A stretch of DNA of 64,000 bases from Candidatus Thorarchaeota archaeon. GTDB lineage: Archaea; Asgardarchaeota; Thorarchaeia; Thorarchaeales; Thorarchaeaceae. The translations under genes and the position numbers were made by a program. The DNA lies in assembly GCA_048882385.1 (NCBI GenBank), contig JBHLRQ010000001.1:1-64000 (forward strand), in the 5' to 3' direction. Position 1 is the first letter of the stretch. Every line of letters begins with the position of its first letter. A model generated the notes under the pieces. The model made no database searches, was not told the origin of the DNA, and saw only the letters and a program-made list of their open reading frames with translations. Positions 1,813-60,464 of the stretch are shown in pieces.

Positions 1813-1830
1813 ATTAAGATCATAGGGAGT

Positions 1831-5498: not shown

Positions 5499-5509
5499 CC
5501 TAACGTCTC

Positions 5510-36783: not shown

Positions 36784-37425
36784 CTAATGGTATCTTCCAC
36801 GATCGCGAATTTCCTTCATTCGTGACAATATTGGTTCTGCTGAGTCGCCTTGGATATCTATGTATCCCTCAAGAACCGCTTCCAACATAGTTTCTTGAAT
36901 ATCCCAGTGCGTCGTTTCTAAGGCCCTCTTAATGAGATGGAGGTCAACACCTTTAGTTTCGAGTGTGGCATTCATCTCAGAGAGACCAAAATCAACGAGC
37001 CATAACTTATCATTTTCATCTACAATGACATTGCTTGTTGTTGGGTCTCCATGAGCAATATTCCCACCATGAAGTAAAGCGATAAGTTGACCAAAGTCGT
37101 GACAGAGAGCTACAAGCTTTGATTTGGATAGGTTTCCTGCAAGTTGTTTGAATTGGATTCCATCAATGAAATCCATCATAATTGTGTAATTACACAAGTC
37201 TATTGCATGAACTGCGGGAGTACGTACTCCAAGGGTCCTTGAAATTGTCAGCATCTTGCATTCTCTATTGATACGAGCTCTCCTAAGTTGAGAGTCTATT
37301 TCAAACAAGAGATAGGGTTTACTTTGACGCCACTTTAGAACATATGGTCTTCCCCATCGCTCTATCTTGTAAATGATAGACTCTGCACCTCTGGCAATCA
37401 TCTGTTTCACTGAGATTGCCTCCAT
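36784..37425 (-). CDS. bud32: KEOPS kinase Bud32
   Basis: RGAES, HGDPTTSN, DFGL and RGRY motifs. Confidence 0.95.
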   Translation of the reverse strand: MEAISVKQMIARGAESIIYKIERWGRPYVLKWRQSKPYLLFEIDSQLRRARINRECKMLTISRTLGVRTPAVHAIDLCNYTIMMDFIDGIQFKQLAGNLSKSKLVALCHDFGQLIALLHGGNIAHGDPTTSNVIVDENDKLWLVDFGLSEMNATLETKGVDLHLIKRALETTHWDIQETMLEAVLEGYIDIQGDSAEPILSRMKEIRDRGRYH

Positions 37426-38402
37426 AGGATATCTTGGTCATCAGTTCTCCATTTTGGTAGAACATGAGAGTCTTGAATACTAACTTGGTGACCAGTGTTG
37501 TACTGGAGAATTCCATTCCATGCAATCATAGCCCCTTGATCACCAGCCAGAGATGGTGAAACGCGGTGAAATTGAGTCTCATGTCGATCGGATACACCAG
37601 TAAGAATCTCGGCCAGACGATCATTACGAGCGACTCCACCCGTCAAGAGAATCTCGTTCTTCTTTGTGTGTGCAAGAGCTCTTTCTGCAATCTCTGCAAT
37701 CATACCAAAAGCTGTTTCTTGAACACTAAAACAAATGTCCGGAATAGATACGTTTTCAGAATGAAGCCGCTTGGCTGCAGTCAGCATCCCAGAATAGCTA
37801 AGGTCCATTCCTTTTACTGAGTAGGGTAGACTATGGAAGTTCTCACCTTCCTTGGCCAAGGTTTCAATAATCGGTCCAGCTGGAAATCCCATTCCAAGTT
37901 CACGACCAAGGACATCTAGCATGTTGCCAATTGCTATGTCAAGGGTTTCACCAAATGTTCTGAATCGTCCACCAGCGAACGCAATCACTTGTGTATTCCC
38001 GCCGGATACATATACGGTTACCGGGTCCTCGAATCCGGACTCCAAGCATCCAATCTCTATGTGGGCTACACAGTGATTCACATCTACTAAAGGAATCTTG
38101 AGTTTTAGAGCCAATGTTCGCGCAATTGTCGCGGTGGTTCTCAAACTTGGACCCAATCCAGGACCCCTTGAAAAAGCAATGATATCAATGTCTTGAAATC
38201 CAATACCAGCATTATGGATCGCTTTGTTGATTATTGTGGGTCCTAGTTCTGAATGATGTCTACTTGCTTCACGGGGATGAATACCACCCTGTTCAGGCTG
38301 GAGCATATCCCATTCGTTTGAAAGGACCTTACCCTCACTGGTAACTATACCAGCACCAAACGAATGTGCAGTTCCTTCTATTCCTAAACAGATTATTGTC
38401 AT
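37407..38402 (-). CDS. kae1: KEOPS t6A synthase Kae1
   Basis: GIEGTAH, HCVAHIEIG, VSGGNTQ and GETLDIAIGN motifs. Confidence 0.97.
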   Translation of the reverse strand: MTIICLGIEGTAHSFGAGIVTSEGKVLSNEWDMLQPEQGGIHPREASRHHSELGPTIINKAIHNAGIGFQDIDIIAFSRGPGLGPSLRTTATIARTLALKLKIPLVDVNHCVAHIEIGCLESGFEDPVTVYVSGGNTQVIAFAGGRFRTFGETLDIAIGNMLDVLGRELGMGFPAGPIIETLAKEGENFHSLPYSVKGMDLSYSGMLTAAKRLHSENVSIPDICFSVQETAFGMIAEIAERALAHTKKNEILLTGGVARNDRLAEILTGVSDRHETQFHRVSPSLAGDQGAMIAWNGILQYNTGHQVSIQDSHVLPKWRTDDQDILWRQSQ

Positions 38403-41938: not shown

Positions 41939-43453
41939 TCACTTGTCTGCCTTTTTTATAGCATCCGTCAAGTTCTTTGTAATTGATTTTGGTTCATACT
42001 TTCTTTGACGAATCTTGACAAATGTTGGCACGGAAACTGTTTCACCAACGAAAAGTGCTTCGCCAATTTCAAGCGTTGTGATTGCATCAAGAGATGGCCG
42101 GTCAATTCCTTCACTTGACCGCCCAATATGGTCCAAATCGTATGGATTTGTACATCTAAGAATAGCTTGATTGCTACACTGACTCAATACGGTTGTAGAG
42201 AGCTTGACTGGTCTCTGCGATACAAGACAGAGAAGTGCATAGAATTTACGACCTTCTCGTGCGATTGTTTCTATGCGGCTCTTGGGTAATGCCAGCTCAT
42301 GACGACTCTCTGGACAGAATTGATGTGCTTCTTCAAGAATAAGTAAGAAAGGTGGAATTTCTTCTCTTCTCCGTAGATGAAGAAGTTCACTGGTTAAGAA
42401 TGAAACAACAATCTGCTTCTTCTTGAGACTAATGAAATCGCTTAGGTCGATTAGTGTGATTTTCCCAGGTCGGACAATATTCTTGACACTTGGAACAGCT
42501 TCTTTGCCAAACAAACGTGTTTCGTCAAGATTGATCAACCATCCTGTCAAAGCCTCACGAGTATTTTTACTGATGGATTGGTCTTCACGAATATATTCCA
42601 CTAGGTCAGCCAATGTGTATCCTTTTTTCATAGATGTCTTTATTTCAGAAACAACACGTCTCAAATCTCGGACTTGGATTGAGCTCATATCAGCTACAAG
42701 AGATCCTATCGTTTCAGCGGAAAGCATCTGAACAGGAATCTGAAAATGTGATCCTCGGATATGCTCAATTTCAAAGTGTCCTGTAGGTAGTCCGAATTCT
42801 TCTGGAGTCAAATCTTTCAGGTAAGTGTACTCACCATGAACATCTACAACGACAACTGAAAGGCGTCCTTTTTCCTTAGATCGCTGTAGAAGTTCTTCTA
42901 GTAGTACAGACACAAAGTATGATTTACCGGCTCCACTCATTGCCAGTATTGCAAGATGTTTCGATAACAGACGGTCTGCAGATGGTGCAAATTCAAGATC
43001 TTGGTAGGCTAACCGACCCAGATGGAGTCCATCTTTCAGATCCATCTTCAGGAATGCTGCAAGAGTTTCTACATCTGCACGGCGTACTATAGCCCCTGGC
43101 GACACTGTAAAATATGGACGAACTGTTCTTCCATTTGACCAAAGACCAAGGACTCGTGTCATAGCAATAGTGTACTGCCATCTATCGGTAGGAAATATTG
43201 ATCGTAGTTGTTCTCCTCTTGATTGATATTCTCGTACCGCTTCTGCATGTTGGTAGTAACGATTTGTGCGTATAAGGTCTTGAACTCTAGCAATCACTGT
43301 TCCAGCATCAGTTACGACTGATACGAACTCGCCACGCCGAGCGATAATTTCTCGAGGTCCGCCTTCAAGTACAAATGAGAATTCCATGACATTGGGACCT
43401 GAGTCAGTTGAAACAACGGTACCAAGGCGAGTACCAGCAGGAAATTCTGTCAT
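41939..43453 (-). CDS. herA: HerA helicase/ATPase
   Basis: HAS barrel, HLAILAMSGAGKS, DVHGEY, EEAH, AREGRK and SQRP motifs. Confidence 0.95.
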   Translation of the reverse strand: MTEFPAGTRLGTVVSTDSGPNVMEFSFVLEGGPREIIARRGEFVSVVTDAGTVIARVQDLIRTNRYYQHAEAVREYQSRGEQLRSIFPTDRWQYTIAMTRVLGLWSNGRTVRPYFTVSPGAIVRRADVETLAAFLKMDLKDGLHLGRLAYQDLEFAPSADRLLSKHLAILAMSGAGKSYFVSVLLEELLQRSKEKGRLSVVVVDVHGEYTYLKDLTPEEFGLPTGHFEIEHIRGSHFQIPVQMLSAETIGSLVADMSSIQVRDLRRVVSEIKTSMKKGYTLADLVEYIREDQSISKNTREALTGWLINLDETRLFGKEAVPSVKNIVRPGKITLIDLSDFISLKKKQIVVSFLTSELLHLRRREEIPPFLLILEEAHQFCPESRHELALPKSRIETIAREGRKFYALLCLVSQRPVKLSTTVLSQCSNQAILRCTNPYDLDHIGRSSEGIDRPSLDAITTLEIGEALFVGETVSVPTFVKIRQRKYEPKSITKNLTDAIKKADK

Positions 43454-43456
43454 TAT

Positions 43457-44620
43457 TTATCCTCCAAAAGGGTTCCGTGATCGTCTTTTCTCAAGGGATA
43501 TGTAGGTGAGTCCAGATAGTGCCATGAGTCTGTCTATAATTAGCCGCGTTTCATTAGCTGTTATCTTTGCTCTTGCATCTGCTTCAAGAATGGGAGTAGG
43601 AATACCATATTCGGGATGTTGTGAGGAGAGAGGTAATATTGCTGATAATGCTGCATCGATTTTGGATGTGTCAATAGCATCCTCATCCTCTGAGAGATAT
43701 TCAATCCTAAGAGGCAAGTCGTCACGTGCTGTTTTGAGGTATGTAACCCAAATTGAAGGTGCCCAGCTAGACAAGTCTTCAGACAAATTGTTTGTATTGA
43801 ATTGCAATTCTGAAGAATATCGAAATACAAACGATCTTTCACCTTCTTCTAGAAATGTGTCGAGAAGATCACAGTCTCTTGAAATTTTAATTAGCCATCT
43901 ATAATCAACGCCTTGCATCATTTCAAAGATTTCAGGATTACGAATGATGTGTGGAAGTATTTCTCCCATCGTTGTAGCTACTCGGGTTGAACGACTGTCC
44001 TTGACAATGCCTATCAAAATTGTTTGTTTCTTTCGAGCTTTATTGTAAAGCTGTTTGTATAGTGCAAGGACCTCTTGAAATTTTTCAAAAACCATGGACC
44101 CACTTTGTGGTCGGTCTCTTGGATGATAGAAAAGTGATCCGTCAAGTAGAATAAGATAAGGCCGAAATTCCTCTATGACCGATAGGGTCACTCGAAGTTC
44201 TGCTGCAATTCGTTCAAGTGATGCAAGCTGGTCTAGTTCCGCACTTGAAAGGGTCAGCATCAGGGGCATTATTTTGGGTTCTGGAAAAGCATCTGGGTAA
44301 AAATCAACAACAGGTCCTTCTTCTGGGCCGAAGTGGAAAATAACTGCAACACCTCTTGTCAGAACCAAATCCATGGATCTGAAGCGTTTTCGTACAAGAC
44401 CCCCGTCAACACCAACGATTTTGAGTCCAGGTAGGGTTGTCGACTTAATCTTAGTTATTAGTGGTGTATCGATTATATTTGATGCAACAGCTGGAAATTT
44501 ACTCAAGTCAATTTTTTTCTTGACGTTTCGAAGCACGTTTCCGAACTGTTTTCTTGTAACTTCGATATGTTCGATTTCCTCAACTAGTTTTGACAACATC
44601 TTGTCGAGATTGCGTTCCAC
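43457..44620 (-). CDS. nurA: NurA nuclease
   Basis: GVDGG, LLDGSL, KDSRS and YG.P.P..EAD..A motifs. Confidence 0.93.
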   Translation of the reverse strand: MERNLDKMLSKLVEEIEHIEVTRKQFGNVLRNVKKKIDLSKFPAVASNIIDTPLITKIKSTTLPGLKIVGVDGGLVRKRFRSMDLVLTRGVAVIFHFGPEEGPVVDFYPDAFPEPKIMPLMLTLSSAELDQLASLERIAAELRVTLSVIEEFRPYLILLDGSLFYHPRDRPQSGSMVFEKFQEVLALYKQLYNKARKKQTILIGIVKDSRSTRVATTMGEILPHIIRNPEIFEMMQGVDYRWLIKISRDCDLLDTFLEEGERSFVFRYSSELQFNTNNLSEDLSSWAPSIWVTYLKTARDDLPLRIEYLSEDEDAIDTSKIDAALSAILPLSSQHPEYGIPTPILEADARAKITANETRLIIDRLMALSGLTYISLEKRRSRNPFGG

Positions 44621-46299
44621 TAGTTTTTCCCTCTCACCTTCTTATATTCCAGTGCGGCCCTTATTAGGCCCAAGTAAAGAGGATGTGGCTTATCTGGTCT
44701 TGATTTGAACTCTGGATGATATTGAACTCCGATCCAGAAAGGATGATCAGCATGTTCTATTGCATTGATTATGCGTCCGGTTGTGTCATGAGCGGATACT
44801 TTCAAACCCTTTTCATCCATCTTATTCAAGTATCTGTCAATTAAGTGAAATCTATGACGAAATCGTTCACGTACCAAGTCAGTTTTGTAGATTTCATGTA
44901 GTCGTGTACCTTTAACGATGACTACTTCGTGACCTCCAAGACGCATGGTCCCACCCTTATCATCTATGATTTTTTGTTCATCCATTAAATCAACAACTGG
45001 ATAAAGACTGTCAATATCGACCTCAGTAGTATGAGCACCTTTCCAACCCATTACTTTTCGAGCAAAAGCAACAGTGGATAATTGAGCACCATAGCAAATT
45101 CCGAGTAGCGGAATCTTGGAATCTAACGTGACGTTTGCTGCACATATCATCCCTTCTACACCACGTTCTCCAAAACCAGGTGTTAGAAGAACTCCATCTA
45201 CATCTGATAGATCTTCAAGAAGACATTCTTCAGTACATCTCTCTTCTGTTTCAATCCATTTTATTTCGACCTGTGCTCCACAAGCTGCTGCAGCGTGTGA
45301 TAATGCTTGATTGATACTCTTGTATGAGTCACCAAGTGTCGTATATTTACCCGGCATAGCAATGACTACTGTTTCAGATACATTTTCAAAAGACTTGACA
45401 ATCTTTGTCCAGTTTTCGGTATTGGGCTCTCTCTGTTCTAACCCGAAATGATCTACAATAATGGTGCCTAACTCCTCCTCTTCAAAAGATAATGGAAGTT
45501 GGTAAATTACAGGAATGTCTGGGTTGGAAATGACTCTCTCCTTTGGAACATTGCAAAATAGAGCAATTTTTTCCTTGGCAGAATCCGGAAGACGCTTCTC
45601 AGCTCTGCATATCATAATGTCAGGTTGAAGACCTAGGCTTTGGAGTGTTCTAACACTATGTTGCGTTGGTTTGGTTTTGAACTCTCCAACCGATTTTATG
45701 TATGGTACAAGTGTGACATGAACTACAGCTGTATTGTCGTGGCCTAGTTCGCTGACAAATTGTCGTACTGCTTCAAGAAAAGGACTGGCTTCGATATCAC
45801 CAACAGTGCCTCCAATTTCTACCAATAAAACATCTGGGACTGGTTCTTTCTTAACTACTTCCCAGATTCTTTGTTTGATTCTTTCAGTGACATGTGGGAT
45901 AATCTGCACAGTACGGCCGAGAAAACTCCCCTTTCTCTCTTCAAGAATGACGGATATATAGATTTGACCAGATGTGATATTCTGTGATGGGTGAACTTCC
46001 ATTCCTGTGAATCGTTCGTAAGTGCCAAAGTCTAAGTCTATTTCTGAGATTTGGAATTCGAAGTCATCAACTGGTTTGAACATCCAAGTCTGATCTGTTA
46101 CAAAAACCTCACCGTGTTCAATTGGATTGAGTGTACCGGGATCAATGTTAAGATATGGATCAATTTTGATTATCCGAATACTATAGCCTCGAAACTGGAA
46201 TAGTTTTGCAATCGAAGCTGTAGTAACTCCTTTACCTATTCCTGAGAGCACGCCGCCTGTTATGAAGACAAAATTCGTTTTCTTTTGAATTGAACTCAA
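44620..46299 (-). CDS. pyrG: CTP synthase
   Basis: TGGVLSGIGKG, KIDPYLN, KTKPTQHSV, GICYG and QYHPE motifs. Confidence 0.97.
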   Translation of the reverse strand: MSSIQKKTNFVFITGGVLSGIGKGVTTASIAKLFQFRGYSIRIIKIDPYLNIDPGTLNPIEHGEVFVTDQTWMFKPVDDFEFQISEIDLDFGTYERFTGMEVHPSQNITSGQIYISVILEERKGSFLGRTVQIIPHVTERIKQRIWEVVKKEPVPDVLLVEIGGTVGDIEASPFLEAVRQFVSELGHDNTAVVHVTLVPYIKSVGEFKTKPTQHSVRTLQSLGLQPDIMICRAEKRLPDSAKEKIALFCNVPKERVISNPDIPVIYQLPLSFEEEELGTIIVDHFGLEQREPNTENWTKIVKSFENVSETVVIAMPGKYTTLGDSYKSINQALSHAAAACGAQVEIKWIETEERCTEECLLEDLSDVDGVLLTPGFGERGVEGMICAANVTLDSKIPLLGICYGAQLSTVAFARKVMGWKGAHTTEVDIDSLYPVVDLMDEQKIIDDKGGTMRLGGHEVVIVKGTRLHEIYKTDLVRERFRHRFHLIDRYLNKMDEKGLKVSAHDTTGRIINAIEHADHPFWIGVQYHPEFKSRPDKPHPLYLGLIRAALEYKKVRGKN

Positions 46300-46420: not shown

Positions 46421-47002
46421 TTATGAGATGGGTTGCGCAAGAACACTAGCACGCATCGCATTTTGAAAGAGGTACTGAAAGGCTTCTACAATATTGTGAC
46501 CTTCTCGTGCGATACTCATAAACACTGGTACTGAAGGGGGTATCTTTAGATGTACTCTTAGTTGGTTCTCGTGTATTGCACTTGGTAAGTCTTGCTTATT
46601 CAGACATACAATCAATGGGAGAGGTCGTTCTTCCTCCTCAATCATAGACATAAGCTCATTCCAACTTGCTAGGTTCTCATCCTGTAGGTGTTCTTGGGAG
46701 TCAGCAACAAAAATCACGCCATCAGCTCCAACCAGCACAACTTCTCTTGTAGATCTATAGAAATCCTGTCCTGTAGCAGACCAAATATGAGCATTTATCG
46801 TCCAACTATTACTCAGAGAGAAGGGGATTGTACCAAAGTCACAGAACATTGTTCGACCAACAGTATTCTCTATAGATGTCAGCTTTTCAGCATAATCTAG
46901 AGTAGAAAACAACCACCTTATTGAAGTCGTTTTTCCACTCATCGCAGGTCCAAAGAATACAATTTTCAAACCAACTGTACGATTTCCATAGTCAATGATC
47001 AT
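46421..47002 (-). CDS. MglA-type small GTPase
   Basis: KIVFFGPAMSGKTT, RTMFCDF, SATGQ (MglA-like G3), GADGVIFVADS and NKQD motifs. Confidence 0.92.
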   Translation of the reverse strand: MIIDYGNRTVGLKIVFFGPAMSGKTTSIRWLFSTLDYAEKLTSIENTVGRTMFCDFGTIPFSLSNSWTINAHIWSATGQDFYRSTREVVLVGADGVIFVADSQEHLQDENLASWNELMSMIEEEERPLPLIVCLNKQDLPSAIHENQLRVHLKIPPSVPVFMSIAREGHNIVEAFQYLFQNAMRASVLAQPIS

Positions 47003-47018
47003 GTTAGGTCCTCCATTC

Positions 47019-47939
47019 TTATGTTCCCCACATACTATCTACCCAAGCTCCTAGACCAGACAAAGTACCACTCTTAACACAGTCAGAGAAATCCTCATGC
47101 CATTCTGCTCTAATGAAATGGATCAAGGCTGGTAGTTCACCACCATCCCAACCAATAGCTTCGTAAAGATTCCTTTCCGTGAGTGTTGTGGATGCACCAA
47201 GTTCTCTTGCTAATCGAATTCTTGACAATAACGTAACTGCTCTACGAGCAGCATGAACGTAGTTGTTAATCTCTTCCTCGAAAACATCTTGTGTGAGTTT
47301 ATCGGATTCATCATCTAGTTTTAGAACTGCATTAAGGATATGGTCAGATACATTGAGCCCGCGAAGAGATTTTGTCAAAAGCCGTCTTATCCTCTCCAAT
47401 GATTGTTTCTTGCGGATTAGTATCTTGTTCACAATTTTCTTTTCAACCTCAAGACTATTGTTCGAAGACCTAACAAGTGAGAATGTTAGTGATGATGGAG
47501 AACTAACCCTTAAGATTCCGCAGTTCCCTGAGTTTTTGAGTATGTGTGCTGTAACATCTTGAAGCGTGCTTTCAGTCACTTGGACTCCTAAGACTGTGAA
47601 CCCGATTGGTACAGCCAATATCCATCCAGCAAAGTGTGTAATTCTATCCATAGCAAGTCTAAGATTTCCTGATAATCCACAAGCAACTGTTCTACTCACT
47701 TCGTAGTTATGTTTCTCTTCTTCCCAGACTGATAGTATCTCAGACTCAGAAGTGAAATCTCGCCAAAATACCAATTTATGACGATGTGGACTTAGTGTAG
47801 TAAGACTTTCAGTAATGTCATCTACAAGCTCAATATCCTCACCAGCCACGATTACGGGCATCCGTTCTAAGATAGTATTCAACAAAATTGGGAACTGATC
47901 ACCCATTAGCTCGATCATTCGCATAATTGAATATGTCAT
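47019..47939 (-). CDS. Folliculin/DENN-core-like protein (cDENN plus helical region)
   Basis: SIMRMIELMGDQFPILLNTILERMPVIVAGEDIELVDDITESLTTLSP resembles the start of the cDENN fold; comparison made from memory, not searched. Confidence 0.6.
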   Translation of the reverse strand: MTYSIMRMIELMGDQFPILLNTILERMPVIVAGEDIELVDDITESLTTLSPHRHKLVFWRDFTSESEILSVWEEEKHNYEVSRTVACGLSGNLRLAMDRITHFAGWILAVPIGFTVLGVQVTESTLQDVTAHILKNSGNCGILRVSSPSSLTFSLVRSSNNSLEVEKKIVNKILIRKKQSLERIRRLLTKSLRGLNVSDHILNAVLKLDDESDKLTQDVFEEEINNYVHAARRAVTLLSRIRLARELGASTTLTERNLYEAIGWDGGELPALIHFIRAEWHEDFSDCVKSGTLSGLGAWVDSMWGT

Positions 47940-48883
47940 GGTTCTCTCCTCGTCAACATTAAACCACTATCGGAACCCCCGGACAATAACAGCTCTTTCA
48001 GGTCTTCTGGGACAGCGGGCTTTACCGCGGCTGCTGACGCTAGAACTCGTCTAATCTCCTCGATATAGTGTTTCAGAAGCAGTCTCATGAGACCAAGTTT
48101 CTGACTATCCTTGTCAACCCACAAACTGAATACACCATTAGGAACTGCGTAGATGAAATGGCGAGTGTCGTCTGTTTCACATAGGACTGTCTGGAGAGAG
48201 CTATTCCTCAAAGTTCTGACCACTCTCTCTGAGGCATCATGGAGTGCAAATGACATAGCAGCTAATCGGTCGTTAGTGAATCCTTCCAATGAAACTCGGA
48301 CGCCTCCACTTAATGACAGAAATACAGATCCGATATTTGGGATACAATCATGAACTTGGCGTAATAATGCTCTGAGACTTAGTGCTTGAGAACGGTCGAG
48401 AGACATCATTGACCGAGAGATGCCATATGTTGTATCACGTCCTTCAGCGACTGCAAAGCCTTGGAGAACTTGTTTGGTTTCATCAAGACTATAGGATCGA
48501 AGAGGTGGAAGCCTACCATCTACATGTTGCCTCAGAAGAAAAGACAAACGAGATAGACTATCTTTCATTTCAATGAATAACGCAGCAAGATTCACTCTAG
48601 GGGCTGTAGTCACAGTAAGGAAATAATCCGGATCGTTTGGTAGAGATGCGAGAAAAACCTTCGAAGTATCGGACTCCATTAGCAGATAGTTGAAATCCCC
48701 ATGGATTAATTTGGCAACACCGAATATAGCACAAGTTGAAGAGGCCACTGCGAAAACTTCGTCTTTACTAAACCATACTCCTGCGCTTGCAACAGGGAGC
48801 CCATCCTTTTGAATTAGAACTACGTTTTCTACACCGGTTATGGCCTTAATGTTCTGTAGGGTTTCAGTTAGTTCATCGCTCAA
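47936..48883 (-). CDS. Tandem roadblock/LC7 (MglB/LAMTOR-like) domain protein
   Basis: L..I....GVE..VLI.KDGLPVAS and a second unit, IPNIGSVFLSLSGGV...LAAMS....ASER; each unit ends in NLAAL/KLGLM. Confidence 0.88.
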   Translation of the reverse strand: MSDELTETLQNIKAITGVENVVLIQKDGLPVASAGVWFSKDEVFAVASSTCAIFGVAKLIHGDFNYLLMESDTSKVFLASLPNDPDYFLTVTTAPRVNLAALFIEMKDSLSRLSFLLRQHVDGRLPPLRSYSLDETKQVLQGFAVAEGRDTTYGISRSMMSLDRSQALSLRALLRQVHDCIPNIGSVFLSLSGGVRVSLEGFTNDRLAAMSFALHDASERVVRTLRNSSLQTVLCETDDTRHFIYAVPNGVFSLWVDKDSQKLGLMRLLLKHYIEEIRRVLASAAAVKPAVPEDLKELLLSGGSDSGLMLTRREP

Positions 48884-48970
48884 ATCCTCAGCCCCGGACG
48901 GATTGTTGGGTTCAATTTAGAATCCATCTCGTGACTATATAATCACCACACAGAATTTGAGGAGGTGTTC

Positions 48971-50269
48971 TTACATGTGAATTAGGGCTGCATCGGGTAC
49001 TTCTTGAAACACTGTACGTGCAGCCTTGCCAACTTTAACACGGTTCTTGTCAAATGTATATACTCTGATTACATCTAGGTATACTTTCATCATTTCCGCG
49101 ATATTAGAATAATCTGAAAGATTGTGTGGAACTCTCTTACCATCAATGATTTCAAAGATATTGATCTCCATAGGATCAAGTTGGTGGGGATTGTAAGGAA
49201 CAGATGGTAGGGTGGGTACGTCAACTATGACTTCGTCTTTCCCAACTCCAGCCAAAGAAGCAATCTCTTCTTGAATGCTTTCACGGACTTTGCTTTTTGT
49301 CAGAATTTTGGAAACAAATCTATCTTGTGTATGAAGTACCTTTTCAAAAGCGGATTTGTATAAGACACGTGAATCTAGAAGATTGACCATCTTTATGGCT
49401 TCTTTTGCATCTTCCGACTCAGAAGGGTCAATGCGCCGTATTCTGGATATCAAGGCCATGTCATCTAGCTCGAGAAATTCTTCAGGTGATGAAAAGCTAG
49501 TCAGTTCTAGGGTATTGTCTGCTGCATTGATGAGCTTAACCAACATTACTTCGACACTTCGTACAGTCTTGTGATAGTAAACATTTAGGAACATCTCATA
49601 TCTGGCTACAAGAAAGGATTCCAAAGCTCCTCGTGCAGCTATGTCAAAATGCATCTGATAGTCTTTCGAGATTTCAATGCTATCAATTAGGCGATGTATA
49701 TCAACTAATCCATAGTTGACTCCGCAATAGAAAGAATCTCGGATTAAGTAGTCCATTTTATCTGAATCTATCTGACCTGCGACTATTCCTGCAATGATTG
49801 AGTCCTTCTTAGTCTTTTGACGGCCTCGAACAAGGTCGCCAATACGTTTCTTGGAAATACCATCAGCTTCTAGCAGGTCTCCAAGTTCACTTTTGAGAAT
49901 TATCCATTCAGTTACGTCCTCGTGGTTCATTCCACGTTTCTCTAGCAGTACTTCTTCAAAGACATGACTGAATGGACCGTGTCCAATATCATGAAGTAAT
50001 CCTGCAATTCGTACTTCCTGTAGTTTTTGTTCTCCTAACCCCATTCGATCTAGAAGTCTTCTGCCACTCAATCCTGCAAGATACATCACACCAATACAGT
50101 GTGCAAATCGAGTATGTTCAGCTGTAGGATATACAAAGTGCCCACCTGAAAGCTGTTTTATTCTTCTTAACCTCTGATAAGGTTGTGAGTTGATTATCTT
50201 GGCTTCAATATCTGTTAGACCAATGAATCCATGAATAGGGTCATTGATTTCCATAGAGAATTTCATCAA
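48971..50269 (-). CDS. HD-domain dNTP triphosphohydrolase (SAMHD1-like, COG1078)
   Basis: DPIHG, QRLRRIKQL, HTRF.H, LLHDIGHGPFSH, D.DKMDY..RD and VYYH motifs. Confidence 0.93.
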   Translation of the reverse strand: MMKFSMEINDPIHGFIGLTDIEAKIINSQPYQRLRRIKQLSGGHFVYPTAEHTRFAHCIGVMYLAGLSGRRLLDRMGLGEQKLQEVRIAGLLHDIGHGPFSHVFEEVLLEKRGMNHEDVTEWIILKSELGDLLEADGISKKRIGDLVRGRQKTKKDSIIAGIVAGQIDSDKMDYLIRDSFYCGVNYGLVDIHRLIDSIEISKDYQMHFDIAARGALESFLVARYEMFLNVYYHKTVRSVEVMLVKLINAADNTLELTSFSSPEEFLELDDMALISRIRRIDPSESEDAKEAIKMVNLLDSRVLYKSAFEKVLHTQDRFVSKILTKSKVRESIQEEIASLAGVGKDEVIVDVPTLPSVPYNPHQLDPMEINIFEIIDGKRVPHNLSDYSNIAEMMKVYLDVIRVYTFDKNRVKVGKAARTVFQEVPDAALIHM

Positions 50270-50291
50270 GCTTCACCATTTTGCATACGTG

Positions 50292-51035
50292 TTACATCTG
50301 AGGGTCGAATAATCGGACTTCACGAATCAGCTCCTCAGCAGTCTTAATCTCTGAAACACACAAGGGAATGTGGATACTTTTCGCGATTTGTACAGCAACA
50401 GAATCTATCTCTTTGACTCCTTGTAATATGACTACAGCAGGTTTTATTGCAATGGAAGTACCTATCTGGCTGGCTTTTATAGCAGCCATTGGAGACCTTC
50501 CTGTAGTTACATTAGTAAGAATAGCACCACGTTGCGTCGTTCCACCATATAGGCGAAGAAGTTGTTGAGGCGTAAGACTCACTATTGCCTTTATACTATC
50601 AAGTGCTGTATATCCATAGATGTCTCTATCAAGTAAGTTGTGATGTGTCAGTACTTTGCAGTTAAGATGTTCAACAAGTAGACGAGCCGGGATGGGAACT
50701 CCAAACTCTCGGCTATCAAGAATGGCATCAGAAGCAATCTCTGGAGTAATTAGCTTTTCAAGTGCTTTTGCGATTCTTCCTCCATCGACAGCGTCCATCT
50801 CAATTAATCCTTCTACAAAGCGCTTGATAGTTTCTACACGTGGTGATTTTCTTCTACCACTTTCATAGTCACTTATGACTGATGGTGATACGTTTAGATG
50901 CTTTGCTAGGTCTTTTTGGGAGATATGAAATCGTTCACGCCAACGACGCATTATCGATCCAGGGTCATTTTCAGCAAGGCATATCTCACCAGCCATTGCC
51001 TCTGCAAGCCTCTGGAGTGCCTCACTATTGTCCAT
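50292..51035 (-). CDS. XRE-family HTH regulator (COG1709-like)
   Basis: AGEI...DPG..MRRWRE.F, SPSVISDYESGRRKSP and TNVTTGRSPM motifs. Confidence 0.9.
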   Translation of the reverse strand: MDNSEALQRLAEAMAGEICLAENDPGSIMRRWRERFHISQKDLAKHLNVSPSVISDYESGRRKSPRVETIKRFVEGLIEMDAVDGGRIAKALEKLITPEIASDAILDSREFGVPIPARLLVEHLNCKVLTHHNLLDRDIYGYTALDSIKAIVSLTPQQLLRLYGGTTQRGAILTNVTTGRSPMAAIKASQIGTSIAIKPAVVILQGVKEIDSVAVQIAKSIHIPLCVSEIKTAEELIREVRLFDPQM

Positions 51036-51171
51036 ATTTGGTCTGCCCTCGTGATTCGTAGATAAGAGTTACGTATATACTGATTTGCGATTCGTTAGTG
51101 ACTGAAGGATGCTTGATTGAGAAATTTGGATAATACCGAAGAACTCAAAGAGGTTGTTTTGACATTGTGCG

Positions 51172-51948
51172 TTGGGGCTTCAAATGTTCTTCACATTTAT
51201 TGTCGGTACTGCAGGTTCAGGTAAATCCTTGCTAACATCTTCATTGGAGAAGTGGCTAGTTGGGTCGGATCTAAGTGTAACTGTAGTCAATCTAGATCCA
51301 GGTGTGGATTCACCTCCGTATACAAGTGATGTCGATATTAGGGAGTATGTGGACTATGGTGAAGTGGTTCGCTCATTTGGTTTAGGTCCTAACGGTGCTC
51401 TTGTTGCATCGTTGGATATGGGAATTAGTCACGTAAACGATTTGCGAGATGAGATTATCGACACTGAGAGAGACTACGTTCTTGTTGACTGTCCAGGACA
51501 AATGGAGCTTTTTGCATTCCGTAATTCCGGACCATTGATGGTTTCTAGTCTTAGAGGAGATGATCCAGCACTTTCTTTGTATCTTCTTGATTCAAATATT
51601 GCACGTACACCGACCGGGTATCTCTCATCAACTCTTCTTGGGATTTCAATCAGTATTCGGTTTGGACTTCCACAATTGAACATCCTGAGTAAACCAGATA
51701 TTTTGAATGAAACTGAATTAGAGGAGTTAGTTGGCTGGGGGAATGAGCTCTATTTGCTAGAGGATGCACTTGAAATGTCTGATGAAGGATTACGTCGAGA
51801 ATATTCTAGAGCGATTCTTGAGATGCTAGAAACACTTGACACAGCTACAGGTAGTGTGCCAGTTTCTGCAAAAGAAATGACAGGGATTGATGTGTTATAC
51901 GGAGAGATGCAACGCGTCTTCTCAGGCGGTGACAATCTATACGAGTAG
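51172..51948 (+). CDS. GPN-loop GTPase
   Basis: GTAGSGKS, NLDP, LGPNG and DCPGQME motifs; likely start ATG 51184. Confidence 0.95.
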   Translation: MGLQMFFTFIVGTAGSGKSLLTSSLEKWLVGSDLSVTVVNLDPGVDSPPYTSDVDIREYVDYGEVVRSFGLGPNGALVASLDMGISHVNDLRDEIIDTERDYVLVDCPGQMELFAFRNSGPLMVSSLRGDDPALSLYLLDSNIARTPTGYLSSTLLGISISIRFGLPQLNILSKPDILNETELEELVGWGNELYLLEDALEMSDEGLRREYSRAILEMLETLDTATGSVPVSAKEMTGIDVLYGEMQRVFSGGDNLYE

Positions 51949-54933: not shown

Positions 54934-56040
54934 ATGAGACTTCAGACTTATCAGTATCTTCTGATTCCTCGCAATGGATTGTCTATGACCGATTTGGTGT
55001 ATCATGAAACATTTGTCAAGCATGAGATATTACCGGGACATCCCGAAAGTCCGGATCGATTGAGGAGCGCAATGAGTTCGTTCACAGCCGCAGGCCTCCT
55101 AGATGATCCAAATGTGATTCTTCTCAAACCACAGAAAGCCTCGCTGAATAAGATACATCCGATTCATGATGAACTATACATAGAAGGAATCAGGGAGAAA
55201 TCTGAGAGGGGAGGGGGTTTCTACACAAATGACACAGCAGTCAATGCACACACATATGATGCTGCACTCTTAGCTGCTGGTGGTGGAATTGAAACAGTAG
55301 AAAGAATAATGCAAGGAGATTCAAATAATGCATTCGTGTTGTGTAGACCTCCAGGACATCATGCTGAATACAGACGAGCTTTTGGTTTTTGCTTTATCAA
55401 CAACATAGCAGTTGCTGCAGAGCATCTGTTGAAGAATAGTGATGTGCAAAGAATATTGATAGTCGATTATGATGCTCATCATGGAAATGGAACACAGCGG
55501 ACATTCTATTCATCTAACAATGTTCTATATGTTGGATTACATCAAGATGGAAGAACACTCTTTCCAGGTTCTGGATTTCCCGATGAGATAGGTGAAGGGG
55601 ATGGAAAGGGGTATACGGTTAATCTTGCTATGTATCCGGGAACAGGGGATGCATCCTATGACTTGATATGCGACCGTGTTCTGGGTCCTCTCTTCGAATC
55701 ATATGAACCCGAATTTCTACTTGTTTCAGTTGGATATGATGGACATTTCAGAGACCCCTTGACTTCACTCGGACTGACGACCTCTGGTTTTGCTATGCTT
55801 AACTCACGATTGAACGAATTGGCTAAATCATATACGGATGGTAAGATAGCATGTTTCTTAGAGGGTGGATACAATCTCGATGTGATGGGCATGTGTTCTC
55901 TGAACCTCCTTCAAGAATTATTAGGATTAAAGGTTTCAAGGTTTGATGACAGCTACACAGAAAGTGAAACATGCTCTCGATACACAGAAGATTTGATTGA
56001 TAGAGTGATCCAGGAATCTCCTTTACTTTCAAGTCACTAG
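54934..56040 (+). CDS. Histone deacetylase (HDAC/AcuC) family
   Basis: HPE...R, RPPGHHA, GFC..NN, D.D.HHGNGTQ and LEGGY motifs; likely start ATG 54985. Confidence 0.95.
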   Translation: MRLQTYQYLLIPRNGLSMTDLVYHETFVKHEILPGHPESPDRLRSAMSSFTAAGLLDDPNVILLKPQKASLNKIHPIHDELYIEGIREKSERGGGFYTNDTAVNAHTYDAALLAAGGGIETVERIMQGDSNNAFVLCRPPGHHAEYRRAFGFCFINNIAVAAEHLLKNSDVQRILIVDYDAHHGNGTQRTFYSSNNVLYVGLHQDGRTLFPGSGFPDEIGEGDGKGYTVNLAMYPGTGDASYDLICDRVLGPLFESYEPEFLLVSVGYDGHFRDPLTSLGLTTSGFAMLNSRLNELAKSYTDGKIACFLEGGYNLDVMGMCSLNLLQELLGLKVSRFDDSYTESETCSRYTEDLIDRVIQESPLLSSH

Positions 56041-58286
56041 TTGCTAAAGTCTTCTAATAGTGTTTGAATAGAATCAACATCATCATTCATTTCTTGCATT
56101 TCCTCAACATGAGTGGTTCCTGTTTTAACATCAATACCTAATTGTTGCTTTATCGAATCTGCAATCGAAGAACCTATTGTTGGTATGCTTGCCAGTTCTG
56201 TTAGTGGAATTCTATAGAGATCAGCAAGATTTGTGAGCCCATGATTATGAAGCATCCTTCCTCTAATACGACCGACTCCTCTAAGACTCACAAGTTCTAG
56301 AATGTCTGTTTGAACTCCATAACGAAGTCGAGATTTTAGATTATGCAGAGCAGGAATATGATTGGGTGCATCAACTATTCGTGCAATCTCTGAAGCAGCG
56401 TATGTTAGCCACTCTGCAGATTGCACGTATCGGTGTACATCACCCATTCCCACGTTGTATTGTTCTGTTATGTTTTTGTCAGTCTTTTCAGAAATCCAGT
56501 CGTGAAGGAGGTTCGCTGTTTTAATTTGTGCTAGAAAGTCGGAGTATGAACGAGGTCCTTCTTCTTCCATTGGTGGTTCAACCATGAGCTTGTCGATTTG
56601 ATCATCAAGCAAGATGACATATTCCTCGACCTCTGACTGTGTTACATATGTAAGTGGTTGATCAGGAGTATAGCAAATGAGATGCAAGAGGCCTATTGTA
56701 CTACGTTTGTTAGTTTCCGTAAGGACATCCCGAAGCAGAATAGCAGTATATGGATCAATATAGAGACGGGATGCTCTCTTGCCAAGAGGTGTTGCTGAGA
56801 ACATTGTAGATGATGCTGCTTCAATGAGACCACCATTCTCGAGGAATCCTAAGGCGTCTGAAATATGATGGTCAATTTCCAGTGGTCCATTTTGGTATGA
56901 GAAAAATGTACCAGCAATCAATGAATCTATCTCTTCTCGAGTCTGGGTCATTTCTGCAGCAATTGAAGCCAATAAATGAAATCTAACAGCCCGTGGTGAT
57001 GCAAGCTTGGAAGTGATTTCTTCAGGTTCAGACAATGTATAGTTGTCAATTAAGAAATCGTGTTCAGGTTCAGTTCGTGCAAACAAAACTGCTTCTCCAT
57101 AGTCATCGTATTTGGGTCGCCCTGCACGACCAGCCATCTGTTTGTATTCTAATACAGGTATAGGATAATTTCCTTGATCTTGGTCAAACCTACGGTAATC
57201 ACGAATGATGACTCGTCTGGCAGGTAGGTTAACACCTGCAGCAAGTGTTGGTGTAGCAATAATGACCTTCAGTAGATTGTTCTTGAAATAATCCTCAACA
57301 AGCACACGTTCATTGTTATCAAGACCTGCATGATGAAATGCAACACCATTGGATATCAAACGACTCAATGTCTTGGAAGTTTCAGGCGCTGAAGGAGATG
57401 ATGCTATTTTCTTAGATCCTTTTGCTAGTAGATACATTTCATCTTTTGAGATATAACGACGCAATGATGATGCAAGTTTTTTTGCCACAGCTACAGTTGA
57501 ACGACGACTAGACACAAAAACGAGAACTTGACCATTTTCATCAAGAGTGTCACAGACGATATCAGCCAATACTTCTTTTCGTTCTCTTTTGATTACTTTG
57601 GATTTACTTCTGCCATTTATGTAGAAACTTATTTTTCCATCCAAATAGACCCCTTCATTCAGGGGAACCGGTCTCCAAGTACTCTTGACCAGCTCAGCAT
57701 TGAGCCAGCTCGCAATTTGGTCTGCATTGGAAATGGTGGCACTCAAAGCAACTATTTGGATATCTTTAATGATTTGGATTAGTTTAGCTAGAACCATTTC
57801 AAGAGTTGGACCACGTTTGGCATCATTGATTAGATGGATTTCATCAGCAACCACTATCCCTACGTCATCAATCCACCCAGTTTTATTGCGAATAAGTGAA
57901 TCTGCCCGTTCAGTAGTCACTACGACTATATCAGCATCGTTTAGCTTTCTTCCAGGTGAGTCGAAATCACCCACGGACATCGCTGTGGTTATTCCTAGAT
58001 CTTCATATTTCTTGAAGTCTACATACTTTTCACGTGCAAGTGATTTCAGAGGGACAAGGTAAAGTGCCTTTCCGCGACCATCAAGAATGTTTTTGAGCAT
58101 GCAGATTTCAGCGACTAGTGTTTTTCCTGAGCTTGTAGGTATTGCTAATACAAGGTTCTTTCCATTCAAGACACCTGTTTTGAACGCACTCTCTTGTGGT
58201 TCGAAGAGTTCTGAGATTCCATGTGTCTGAAGATGCGAGATTATTTTCTTGTTGATTTCCAACTCTTCCAATTGAATTGTATTCAT
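56037..58286 (-). CDS. hel308: Hel308/Hjm Ski2-like helicase
   Basis: PTSSGKT, DEIH, SAT, TPTLAAGVNLPA, QMAGRAGR and C-terminal HhH; start ATG 58286. Confidence 0.95.
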   Translation of the reverse strand: MNTIQLEELEINKKIISHLQTHGISELFEPQESAFKTGVLNGKNLVLAIPTSSGKTLVAEICMLKNILDGRGKALYLVPLKSLAREKYVDFKKYEDLGITTAMSVGDFDSPGRKLNDADIVVVTTERADSLIRNKTGWIDDVGIVVADEIHLINDAKRGPTLEMVLAKLIQIIKDIQIVALSATISNADQIASWLNAELVKSTWRPVPLNEGVYLDGKISFYINGRSKSKVIKRERKEVLADIVCDTLDENGQVLVFVSSRRSTVAVAKKLASSLRRYISKDEMYLLAKGSKKIASSPSAPETSKTLSRLISNGVAFHHAGLDNNERVLVEDYFKNNLLKVIIATPTLAAGVNLPARRVIIRDYRRFDQDQGNYPIPVLEYKQMAGRAGRPKYDDYGEAVLFARTEPEHDFLIDNYTLSEPEEITSKLASPRAVRFHLLASIAAEMTQTREEIDSLIAGTFFSYQNGPLEIDHHISDALGFLENGGLIEAASSTMFSATPLGKRASRLYIDPYTAILLRDVLTETNKRSTIGLLHLICYTPDQPLTYVTQSEVEEYVILLDDQIDKLMVEPPMEEEGPRSYSDFLAQIKTANLLHDWISEKTDKNITEQYNVGMGDVHRYVQSAEWLTYAASEIARIVDAPNHIPALHNLKSRLRYGVQTDILELVSLRGVGRIRGRMLHNHGLTNLADLYRIPLTELASIPTIGSSIADSIKQQLGIDVKTGTTHVEEMQEMNDDVDSIQTLLEDFSN

Positions 58287-58314
58287 CTCCACTGGGATTA
58301 TTGCAGATGTTATT

Positions 58315-60381
58315 TTAGCTCTGGGAGTGTCTGATTTTACCCTCTCGTGGACTATATAGTATCCCGTCGTTGAGTAGTTTCTCAATGACCTTCTCAGCTC
58401 GTTCGCGTGAGAGTCCCATTGAAACGGTTCTCTGTATCAACGCATCTATATTCACTGTTGAAGTTCCTTCAGATTCCATGTCTCGAAGTGCTTTGATGAT
58501 GATATCAGAAGAGCTTCTTTGTTCAGCGCTCATCTTTGATACTTGACGATCAATGTCAATTCGGCCAGTTATTCTGTCCATTGCGACCATCCTTAGTGAT
58601 TCTTCCATTAGACGAATTGCGGCTCGAGCATCTTCTTTGTTGACTTCAGACCGTAGAGCCATTCTAGCTCTGGCTTCTGCTAATCGAACAAGTGATTCAA
58701 GTTGTCGAGCCGTAATGGGAATTGCTCCTCCTCCTTCGGCACTTTTCCTAAGTTCAACATAGAAATCTTCAATGACCTCTGCAGCATCTGCAGTGAGTTG
58801 GGGAAATACGTTAAGATTTGCATATCCAATATATTTTTTCAGAAATTCAGGAGATATTGGAGGTAGTACACCTTGGTCTTGGATTTTCTTCATCTGATGC
58901 ATATCTAGAATGAACTTTGCAAGTTCACGGTCTTGATCAACATTGACAGTATCTACCATTATCCAGATTAGGTCAAATCTTGATAAGATTGTGAATGGCA
59001 GTCTTATGTTTTCTTGAAGAGTGAGTGAATCTTCGTATCGGCCTAATGTAGGATTTGCAGCCGCAAGAATTGAGGTTCGTGCATTGAGTGTAGCCACAAT
59101 GCCTGCTTTGGCGATACTTACAGTGTGTTGTTCCATGGCTTCATGTATTGCTGTTCGATCATTGGGGTCCATCTTATCGAACTCGTCAATACAGGCAATT
59201 CCTTGATCTGCTAGAACCAATGCTCCGGCTTCAAGGGTCATAGCGCTCGAATCAGTATCATGAACAACTGCAGCAGTGAGTCCAGCAGCAGTTGTGCCTT
59301 TTCCAGACGTGTAGAGTCCTCGAGCTGCAAGTCCGGAAACAAACTTGAGAATCTGGCTTTTTCCAGTTCCAGGATCTCCAATCATCAAAATGTTTGATTT
59401 TCCCCTTAAACGCGTTCCGTCAGATAGAAGCTTTGGAACTCCACCAAAAAGAAGAAGACCAATAGATTCCTTGATATTATCATGTCCTTGAATTGATGGT
59501 GCGATGCTTGCTTGAATTCTTTCGTGGACTTGCGGATGTTGAGATAACTCTTCGATACGTTTTACATCTTCTTCCGATATCTGAAGCTGCTCGTACTCCT
59601 TCTCAGAAATTTCAACACCGTTTGCTTCGATGAATATATTGAATGTTGCTAATTTTCCTCCTCGTCTTGAGAAATCAGGAGTTGTTTGTAGTATTCCAGT
59701 GACTTTAACCAAATCTCCTGGTCTTGAGATATCAACAATATCACCCTCTAATATTACATCAACTGACCGGGGCATTTGACCTGGAGGGAGTTCTTCTGGA
59801 GATTCTTGTATTCGAACCTTCTGCCAGTCTTTGAATTGCGATTTTTGAGGAATTAGCCGCATTGGTGTCTTTTTTGTACAAACAGGACATAGTGCTGGTT
59901 CGGTGTACTTTCCCTCATCTTGATCTTGAGGGATTTCTGATTGACAAATTCGGCAAAGAAAAACTGCTTTTACAAGCAGGGGCTTGACTTCACTTGCACG
60001 CATCATGATTCCACTGATATGAATCAATTTTCCAATATGCCGCGAGCGAATTGTACGAAGTGGTACATGCTCAGGATATCCAATAAAACGAGTTTTTATG
60101 ATGCTTGAATCAGTTAGACTATTGACATAATCTGGATCTTCGATTCTTAATACAGAAACTAATGCGTTGTTGACCATCTCTAGGAATCTTTTGGGGTCTT
60201 CAGCTGCAAGTGCTATGAATACATTGTCGAAGCTAGTGAGATCTTGAAAATTCACAGTAAGAGAGATTTCGTCATTGATAGACATCTGTTGAACTCGAGT
60301 CCAATAGATAGAGTTTCCTTGTTCATCCTTGTAGGTTCTCAGAAACTCTTCAAACCTTTCTTGTTCATCATAGCTAGACAT
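58315..60381 (-). CDS. mcm: MCM replicative helicase
   Basis: GDPGTGKSQ, IDEFDKM, SRFD, zinc finger and ITARQLE; no intein; start ATG 60381. Confidence 0.97.
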   Translation of the reverse strand: MSSYDEQERFEEFLRTYKDEQGNSIYWTRVQQMSINDEISLTVNFQDLTSFDNVFIALAAEDPKRFLEMVNNALVSVLRIEDPDYVNSLTDSSIIKTRFIGYPEHVPLRTIRSRHIGKLIHISGIMMRASEVKPLLVKAVFLCRICQSEIPQDQDEGKYTEPALCPVCTKKTPMRLIPQKSQFKDWQKVRIQESPEELPPGQMPRSVDVILEGDIVDISRPGDLVKVTGILQTTPDFSRRGGKLATFNIFIEANGVEISEKEYEQLQISEEDVKRIEELSQHPQVHERIQASIAPSIQGHDNIKESIGLLLFGGVPKLLSDGTRLRGKSNILMIGDPGTGKSQILKFVSGLAARGLYTSGKGTTAAGLTAAVVHDTDSSAMTLEAGALVLADQGIACIDEFDKMDPNDRTAIHEAMEQHTVSIAKAGIVATLNARTSILAAANPTLGRYEDSLTLQENIRLPFTILSRFDLIWIMVDTVNVDQDRELAKFILDMHQMKKIQDQGVLPPISPEFLKKYIGYANLNVFPQLTADAAEVIEDFYVELRKSAEGGGAIPITARQLESLVRLAEARARMALRSEVNKEDARAAIRLMEESLRMVAMDRITGRIDIDRQVSKMSAEQRSSSDIIIKALRDMESEGTSTVNIDALIQRTVSMGLSRERAEKVIEKLLNDGILYSPREGKIRHSQS

Positions 60382-60464
60382 CTTATTTGGCCTCGACAAC
60401 ATTGCTTCTGCAATCGTTTCTTTGTTCTTCAGGATTTGTATTTAAGGACACTAATACTCACAAC

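Follow-up and report, generated by a model that had tools for sequence, protein, structure and literature searches.

Introduction

The Rab, Rag and Arf GTPases of eukaryotic membrane traffic and nutrient signalling are controlled mainly by proteins with DENN and longin/roadblock folds, and where these regulators came from is an unsettled matter in eukaryogenesis. In this study, we analysed a three-gene operon from a Candidatus Thorarchaeota archaeon that encodes a double-roadblock protein (gene 1), a protein with a predicted DENN fold (gene 2) and an MglA-type small GTPase (gene 3). The operon lies in a stretch of 64,000 nucleotides, called the window below, which comprises positions 1 to 64,000 of contig JBHLRQ010000001.1 in assembly GCA_048882385.1.

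The closest described systems are found among bacterial polarity switches, eukaryotic GTPase regulators and predictions from Asgard genomes. Group 1 MglA GTPases are defined by an arginine beside the G2 threonine, the intrinsic arginine finger, together with a G3 motif free of aspartate, and MglB proteins have a single feature in common, an Asp-Gly pair (PMC4316618). MglB's helix at the C-terminus (Ct-helix) binds MglA allosterically (PMC6785124). In the complexes of folliculin and of C9orf72-SMCR8, the catalytic arginine is located in a longin domain (PMC12290439). Among Asgard GTPases, MglA1 and MglA2-5 groups are distinguished (Vargova et al., bioRxiv 10.1101/2024.02.28.582541), and MglA-like GTPases are described in MK-D1, whose small GTPase genes generally lie outside operons with roadblock genes (Tran et al., PMC10933270). 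Liu et al. (bioRxiv 10.1101/2020.10.19.343400) predict an operon, "conserved in most Asgard archaea", that combines a Roadblock protein, a small GTPase and a DENN protein, describe its GTPase family as distinct from Rag GTPases, and propose that the module would regulate small GTPases in an FLCN-like manner.

Here, we present evidence that the locus in the window is probably one copy of a conserved three-gene small-GTPase module of Asgard archaea, very probably the operon of Liu et al., and that its DENN-like component is modelled as a chain without a longin domain.

Results

Organisation of the operon

According to the list of open reading frames (ORFs) of the window, the operon consists of three co-oriented ORFs, all on the minus strand and tightly packed (Table 1). 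When the reverse complement was read, the ATG of gene 2 (47939-47937) overlapped the TGA of gene 1 (47938-47936), gene 2 ended with a TAA at 47021-47019, and the ATG of gene 3 was located at 47002. An initial annotation of this DNA had proposed three co-oriented genes, without naming a strand, along with the ATGA overlap at 47936-47939 and a 16-nucleotide spacer before the GTPase gene. All of these are borne out by the ORF list and the reverse-complement read, and the arrangement is confirmed as real. A query of sequencing runs turned up no RNA run that contains the locus.

By eye, a GGAG-type motif at 47949-47946 and a GGAGGA at 47014-47009 each stand six nucleotides ahead of the start codons of genes 2 and 3, respectively. 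In contrast to this six-base spacing, a GAGGA is located just one base upstream of the TTG of gene 1 (window 48881-48889), so that its exact start or mode of initiation is less sure. Close relatives of the gene 1 protein in the databases are also 315 residues long, and the aligned ones begin at the same residue. The database names of relatives are generic in all three families ("hypothetical protein", "roadblock/LC7 domain-containing protein", "GTP-binding protein", "signal recognition particle receptor subunit beta"), and none of the operon proteins was assigned to an informative family by NCBIfam.

The gene 2 product is modelled as a DENN module without a longin domain

An exhaustive search among 1.84 billion representatives returned 63 relatives of the gene 2 protein at an expectation value (E) of 0.001 or below, most of them about 300 residues long. 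A model computed from 38 diverse family members had a predicted local distance difference test score (pLDDT) of 89.0 and a predicted template modelling score (pTM) of 0.85, and it presents an alpha/beta lobe (residues 1-157, with its first strand at 29-33) followed by a helical lobe (160-285). In the family alignment, R26, P28, R53 and E75 of the alpha/beta lobe are invariant, and R83 and W106 are nearly so.

An unbiased fold search against 48,161 chains, independent of Foldseek, placed DENN modules at ranks 1-5, with both lobes aligned over residues 1-285. The fold matches included DENND10 in Commander (Z 13.1, root-mean-square deviation (rmsd) 4.5, 186 aligned residues), the C-terminal domain of folliculin (3v42_B; Z 12.8, rmsd 3.6, 187/199 residues, with folliculin 345-558 on model residues 1-282), folliculin in the lysosomal complex (Z 12.7, rmsd 3.6, 187 aligned) and two C9orf72-SMCR8 entries (Z 10.8; rmsd 4.3 and 4.8; 195 and 211 aligned). 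Of the 12 highest entries in a second look at the fold matches, 10 were DENN modules, among them the Rab35 complexes of DENND1B and DENND1A. When Foldseek was run on the model, the top five rows were all folliculin, with probabilities of 0.96-0.99 and E values of 6e-3 to 1e-2.

Sequence comparison gave weak signals, through relatives of gene 2. The gene 2 protein itself matched no sequence in the Protein Data Bank (PDB) at E ≤ 10. Within its family, the Pfam profile Folliculin_C was co-linear at the N-terminus of 3/38 members (best E 4.8e-4), the best match scoring 20.2 bits against a cut-off of 27 and placing residues 5-62 on profile positions 4-62, and the Pfam profile DENN touched one member of the 38 (E 0.093). 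The folliculin-like N-terminal motif proposed in the initial annotation is located in the very stretch that these sub-threshold Folliculin_C matches of the relatives cover, namely the first ~60 positions. In a language-model search, the neighbours of the gene 2 protein were C9orf72-like, Folliculin_C/SMCR8_C, SPA, DENND10 and DENND11, all clusters of the DENN clan. In the genome to which the window belongs, neither Folliculin_C nor the N-terminal profile Folliculin gave a match at E ≤ 1.

Residue 1 of the model falls on folliculin residue 345, where the C-terminal domain of folliculin begins. Because the model thus begins directly at the DENN core, the gene 2 chain appears to be without a longin domain. 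The predicted structure supports the core-DENN plus d-DENN fold of the C-terminal half of folliculin, with no longin domain, and the description of the middle protein as folliculin/DENN-like and longin-less, already given in the initial annotation, gains support from both structure prediction and fold search. A lack of structural similarity to DENN had been named there beforehand as grounds for giving up the idea; the fold searches found that similarity.

The gene 3 product is an MglA-type GTPase

In a search of PDB sequences, the best solved relatives of the GTPase were four MglA sequences (E 1.6e-27 to 1.4e-26), and the next family was Arf (E 1.4e-9). The Pfam profiles Arf, Roc and Ras scored above their cut-offs, whereas Gtr1_RagA was far weaker and remained below its own (21.1 bits, cut-off 22). 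Besides the motifs listed in Table 1, an NKxD is kept in 15/15 operon GTPase orthologues. In a residue-by-residue alignment, R50-T51 fell on the Arg-Thr of Thermus and Myxococcus MglA, which places R50 at the position of the MglA intrinsic arginine finger, and SATGQ fell on TVPGQ. The exact TVPGQ motif is absent from the operon GTPase, and for this reason we regard the protein as MglA-like in its mechanism-relevant residues and not as a textbook Group 1 member. Judged by its sequence, the gene 3 product is an MglA-type GTPase and not a Rag-type one, as its closest solved relatives and the motif alignment agree with the earlier assignment. A Rag/Ragulator identity of the GTPase and the roadblock protein was considered and rejected, given the single G domain of 193 residues, the Gtr1_RagA score under the cut-off and MglA as the closest relative.

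Several paralogues were seen elsewhere in the window's genome, and in two of them the G3 motif is TVAGQ. The closest paralogue of the operon GTPase (L045; C10:34500-42500, 11-4219) shares 68% identity and has both GRT and SATGQ. It has no roadblock or DENN neighbour and follows a HerA-like DUF87 protein (646 residues) and a 555-residue protein without a Pfam match. A second roadblock/GTPase cluster, on one strand (L046; C18:18000-26000, 3206-7440), contains a Sec23/24-like protein (540 residues, Sec23_trunk E 1.6e-10) and a LAMTOR5-like roadblock protein (152 residues), followed by a MAPKK1_Int/LAMTOR3-like roadblock protein (154 residues), an MglA-type GTPase paralogue (190 residues, TVAGQ) and a third roadblock protein (126 residues). 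A further MglA-type paralogue of 274 residues (L047; C7:11000-19000, 3716-4540) carries an N-terminal extension of ~85 residues that is rich in charged residues.

The gene 1 product carries two roadblock domains in one chain

The Pfam profile Robl_LC7 matched the gene 1 protein over two stretches (E 5.1e-10; 39.4 bits, cut-off 23), and solved roadblock chains matched residues 3-108 and, separately, 185-280 in the PDB sequence search. An AlphaFold model from 20 orthologues (pLDDT 76.4, pTM 0.75) shows two complete units, residues 2-118 and residues 164-282, each with the order helix-strand-strand-helix-strand-strand-strand-helix; a stretch of the linker (residues 145-158) and the tail (287-315, pLDDT under 50), in which the short helix 293-300 is located, are of low confidence. 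With Foldseek, each unit matched LAMTOR2, MglB and the roadblock proteins of Thorarchaeota and MK-D1 at E values of about 1e-6 and a target template modelling score of about 0.8. The gene 1 protein is therefore, on profile matches and the two-unit model, a fusion of two roadblock domains in one chain, as had been read from the DNA initially.

All 20 aligned orthologues are 308-361 residues long. Their alignment has 13 invariant columns, most of them in the N-terminal unit (G17, V18, Q25, D27, G28, P30, G35, W37, E42, A52 and N98), and the D27-G28 pair is present in 20/20. The sole invariant residue of the C-terminal unit is G264, with G194, F243, I244, L265, R267 and L268 nearly so. By eye, most of the 20 tails finish in a short amphipathic acidic/hydrophobic end.

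The three genes are inherited together

To survey the distribution of the operon, profile searches were carried out in 301 genomes sampled from the phylum, 90 of which are of high quality. The DENN-family profile matched 165/301 genomes and 66/90 high-quality ones, mostly once per genome. Its matches were concentrated in certain families (f1 74/76, f9 57/68, f12 15/19, f3 4/4, f15 4/4 and f24 5/7), and there were none in f5 (0/28), f22 (0/21), f14 (0/11) and f27 (0/11). The double-roadblock profile matched 169/301 genomes (f1 76/76, f9 56/68, f12 19/19) and none in f5, f14, f22 and f27, so that the presence of the DENN and double-roadblock proteins coincides family by family.

The order roadblock, DENN, GTPase on one strand was found in 14/14 distant loci from nine other families, and also in 30/30 best-scoring loci, all of which belong to the window's own family and include the window itself. 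A failure of this order to be conserved was another outcome that the initial annotation had set against its proposal in advance; the order is kept in every one of these loci. When measured from first-start ORF calls, 26/28 junctions of the distant loci range from -20 to +23 nucleotides, and the exceptions (in L042 and L044) both depend on start-codon calls. None of the window's six flanking genes (0/6) recurs in the 14 distant loci, and from this we take the three-gene cassette to be the conserved unit. A fourth conserved operon gene was considered and rejected, since different lineages have different flanking genes. Over 20 loci, the pairwise distances of the three proteins are correlated (r 0.93-0.97, shared ancestry being uncontrolled), and this fits joint inheritance. 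The trio is thus passed on as a tightly packed block whose gene order is fixed.

In the same survey, six matches of the double-roadblock profile (G099, G077, G296, G176, G128 and G299) each had one in-frame stop, either TAA or TGA, within the stretch that matched.

Table 1. Features of the operon in the window, with the Folliculin_C-like proteins of two other families (coordinates of the latter refer to the respective locus)
Feature	Coordinates	Strand	Remarks
Gene 1, double-roadblock protein	47936..48883	-	315 residues, TTG start
N-terminal roadblock domain, residues 1-118	48530..48883	-	predicted; better conserved unit, invariant D27-G28 pair
C-terminal roadblock domain, residues 164-282	48038..48394	-	predicted; more divergent, matches 9jue_D and 7yh1_D
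Short C-terminal helix, residues 293-300, EDLKELLL	47984..48007	-	predicted; after low-confidence linker
ATGA overlap, gene 1 stop / gene 2 start	47936..47939	-	from the reverse-complement read
Gene 2, longin-less DENN/d-DENN (folliculin-C-like) protein, as modelled	47019..47939	-	306 residues, ATG start
Alpha/beta core DENN lobe, residues 1-157	47469..47939	-	predicted; carries the invariant residues of the gene 2 family
Helical d-DENN lobe, residues 160-285	47085..47462	-	predicted; helices H164-192, H209-246, H269-280
Spacer of 16 nucleotides, gene 2 to GTPase gene	47003..47018	-	contains GGAGGA, six nucleotides ahead of the ATG of gene 3
Gene 3, MglA-type small GTPase	46421..47002	-	193 residues, ATG start
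P-loop GPAMSGKT, residues 18-25	46928..46951	-	G[PC]AMSGK[TS] in 15/15 orthologues
R50-T51, arginine beside the G2 threonine	46850..46855	-	GRT in 15/15 orthologues
G3 motif SATGQ, residues 75-79	46766..46780	-	without aspartate, catalytic glutamine kept; [ST][AC]TGQ in 15/15
Folliculin_C-like protein (f21/f5), L048	1171-2094
Folliculin_C-like protein (f21/f5), L051	1093-2016
Folliculin_C-like protein (f21/f5), L049	1000-1980
Folliculin_C-like protein (f21/f5), L050	229-1248

Neighbouring genes in the window

Upstream of the operon (48971-51948) are the genes of an HD + HD_assoc_2 phosphohydrolase (432 residues) and an HTH_3 protein (247 residues), and then, divergently oriented, that of a GPN-loop GTPase (ATP_bind_1, E 1.6e-56); none of these recurs beside the operon in other lineages. 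On the other side, HerA (DUF87, 504 residues) and NurA (387 residues) are arranged head to tail at 41939-44620, just downstream of CTP synthase (44620-46299), and the NurA and CTP synthase ORFs have one base in common. Among the housekeeping genes farther away, Kae1/TsaD adjoins a RIO/Bud32-like kinase (36784-38402), and an MCM helicase adjoins a Hel308-like helicase (56037-60402).

Relation to the published operon

The operon of Liu et al. has the same three components, and its composition and distribution fit the present locus. We are highly confident that the two are the same, an identification made by composition and not by accession from the accessible part of the preprint. The novelty assumed in the initial annotation did not hold up, as the operon was predicted in print in 2020; it is already known as a prediction and is not a new kind of system. 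In our literature search, the preprint was the only source covering the operon, and no bench work on a Roadblock/GTPase/DENN operon was found. In the accessible part of the preprint, neither the tandem roadblock nor the missing longin is stated. What the present copy adds is the fused tandem roadblock, along with independent confirmation of the predicted fold of gene 2, the MglA-type catalytic residues and the strict co-occurrence of the three genes.

Discussion

Evidence for and against a DENN-containing GTPase module

The reading of the locus as a conserved GTPase module with a DENN-like component draws on the fold matches of the gene 2 model over both lobes and on the fixed gene order across families. 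A number of observations weigh against it. The gene 2 protein matched 0 Pfam families at E ≤ 1, and its model gave no Foldseek row at E ≤ 0.001. Searched against PDB sequences, the gene 2 family profile found ferritin chains (E 0.0016-0.0067) and no DENN chain; the ferritin matches run over a helical stretch and are taken as chance. ATPase domains of the PilT/VirB11/GspE type reached Z 9.4-10.2, just some 2.5-3 units short of the top DENN matches. In 136/301 genomes searched, among them whole families, the operon was not found. Furthermore, in the accessible part of their preprint Liu et al. label the GTPase "Rab-like", whereas the closest solved relatives and the catalytic motifs seen here are MglA-type, and they label the roadblock protein "LAMTOR1-like". 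Lastly, a folliculin-like mechanism of a GTPase-activating protein (GAP) is not simply transferable to this operon, because the arginine-bearing longin domain is missing and the GTPase has an arginine of its own.

Proposed mechanism and alternative roles of the DENN-fold protein

Based on these features, we propose that the fused roadblock pair would act as an intramolecular pseudo-dimer that binds one GTPase in the way that an MglB dimer binds MglA, and that it would speed hydrolysis by positioning Arg50 and Gln79 of the GTPase itself. By analogy with the MglA-MglB structures, as given in the accessible portions of their descriptions (PMC4316618, PMC6785124), we consider such binding and GAP action somewhat favoured. 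That the C-terminal helix of the roadblock protein acts like the MglB Ct-helix seems rather unlikely on the same analogy. The DENN-fold protein would dock on the roadblock platform, and together they would form in trans a roadblock/longin + DENN + d-DENN arrangement, which eukaryotic DENN proteins hold in one chain. We tentatively suggest, at somewhat less than an even chance and by analogy, that the DENN protein may control nucleotide exchange or gate the GAP, rather than being a mere scaffold or effector.

Alternatively, the DENN-fold protein could be an effector or scaffold, which would bind the GTP-form GTPase or the roadblock platform and pass the signal on without regulating the nucleotide cycle. 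DENND10 is a structural subunit of the Commander complex, and DENND10 of Commander is the best single fold match of the gene 2 model; set against this are the DENND1A/1B-Rab35 exchange-factor entries that also appear among the matches (Z 9.8-9.9). In folliculin-type regulators, the catalytic arginine resides in the longin domain and not in the DENN lobes (PMC12290439), which suits an effector, although charged residues are conserved in the core DENN lobe here, R26, R53 and E75 being invariant and R83 nearly so. According to the accessible portion of PMC6785124, MglB alone can be both GAP and exchange factor for MglA, and a third regulator would therefore not strictly be needed. The strict single-copy co-inheritance with the GTPase suits a regulator or an effector role and therefore does not decide between them. 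On balance, we think that an effector or scaffold role is unlikely.

It is very improbable that the gene 2 protein is instead a degenerate ATPase domain of the RecA/PilT kind followed by a helical tail, unrelated by homology to eukaryotic DENN and resembling it only through the common three-layer alpha/beta fold: GspE, VirB11, FlaI, CpaF and archaeal RuvB-like helicase chains do align at Z 9.4-10.2 over residues 1-157 or 1-268, and the Foldseek E values for folliculin are only 6e-3 to 1e-2, but DENN modules occupy ranks 1-5 of the 48,161 chains over both lobes (residues 1-282), Folliculin_C (3/38) and DENN (1/38) alone among Pfam signals recur in a consistent register, and the language-model search independently gave C9orf72-like, Folliculin_C/SMCR8_C, SPA, DENND10 and DENND11 clusters. 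Since a Walker A motif was found in 0/38 family members, the ATPase likeness of the model is read as general fold similarity.

Evolutionary implications

Returning to the gene 2 protein as a DENN module in a GTPase switch, a wider reading is that the operon represents a split DENN module, with the roadblock pair and the longin-less DENN protein working in trans on an MglA-type GTPase as client. In that case, DENN would first have served a switch of the MglA-MglB type, and eukaryotic longin-DENN proteins would have come about by operon fusion. We regard this as doubtful, at well below an even chance. If it were true, the one-chain regulators DENND, folliculin/FNIP and C9orf72/SMCR8 would have arisen by fusion of such an operon, with catalysis later handed to the longin arginine and the client changed to Rab, Rag or Arf.

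Across the 301 genomes, Folliculin_C gave just four matches, all sub-threshold, in proteins of 307-339 residues from families f21 and f5, where the operon was not found (Table 1). In these proteins the Folliculin_C-like stretch begins at about residue 111-191, and one of them has a weak, below-threshold match to Fuz_longin_1 at residues 4-96, ahead of that stretch. An hhalign comparison of the gene 2 family with one of the four returned a probability of 16%, and they have PAC2, DUF123 and zinc-ribbon genes as neighbours and no GTPase genes. Judging from these profile matches, the four are possibly fused longin-DENN proteins, a weak hint toward the fusion reading. By joining a DENN fold, an MglA GTPase of the bacterial type and a roadblock platform, the operon would offer a simple, expressible three-protein system for testing ancestral DENN function.

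Comparison with known systems

The canonical tripartite DENN module combines longin/u-DENN, DENN and d-DENN in one chain, and the gene 2 protein, as modelled, has no N-terminal longin domain. Among proteins of this kind, the Rab35 exchange factors DENND1A and DENND1B (3tw8, 6ekk) align through core DENN and d-DENN with model residues 1-282 at Z 9.8-9.9, and by their entry titles they are the only listed DENN type with exchange-factor activity on the bound GTPase. In DENND1, however, the longin (u-DENN) lobe is located in the same chain, and sequence identity in the structural alignment is 7-8%.

The longin-DENN GAP complexes Folliculin-FNIP and C9orf72-SMCR8 (PDB 3v42, 6nzd, 6ulg, 8dhb, 6lt0, 7o2w, 7mge) resemble the operon in fold, as folliculin 345-558 (Z 12.8) and C9orf72-SMCR8 chains (Z 10.8-11.1) match the gene 2 model in both lobes. 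As in those complexes, a DENN fold goes together with a small GTPase and a platform of the roadblock/longin type. Unlike them, the gene 2 chain is predicted to have no longin domain and hence no longin arginine finger, no second DENN protein with which it could heterodimerise is in evidence, and the putative client, which brings an arginine of its own, is an MglA-type GTPase and neither Rag nor Arf. The Rag-Ragulator-FLCN system differs further in its GTPases, since Rag proteins are heterodimeric and consist of a G domain with a C-terminal roadblock, whereas the operon GTPase is a single G domain of 193 residues.

On the side of the GTPase and its roadblock partner, the comparison leads to the MglA-MglB switch of Myxococcus xanthus and Thermus thermophilus (3t12, 6izw, 6h5b). 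The present operon departs from it in three respects. The roadblock partner is a fused tandem in one 315-residue chain, whereas MglB is a single-domain homodimer; the G3 motif is [ST][AC]TGQ in place of the TVPGQ of MglA; and the operon includes a DENN-fold third gene, of which the bacterial systems have none as described in the accessible parts of the papers cited. Both systems likewise share the G2-adjacent arginine, the catalytic glutamine and the aspartate-free G3 in the GTPase. In both, moreover, the adjacent roadblock gene carries the Asp-Gly pair, and the roadblock protein appears, by analogy with MglB, to end in a short C-terminal helix behind a flexible linker.

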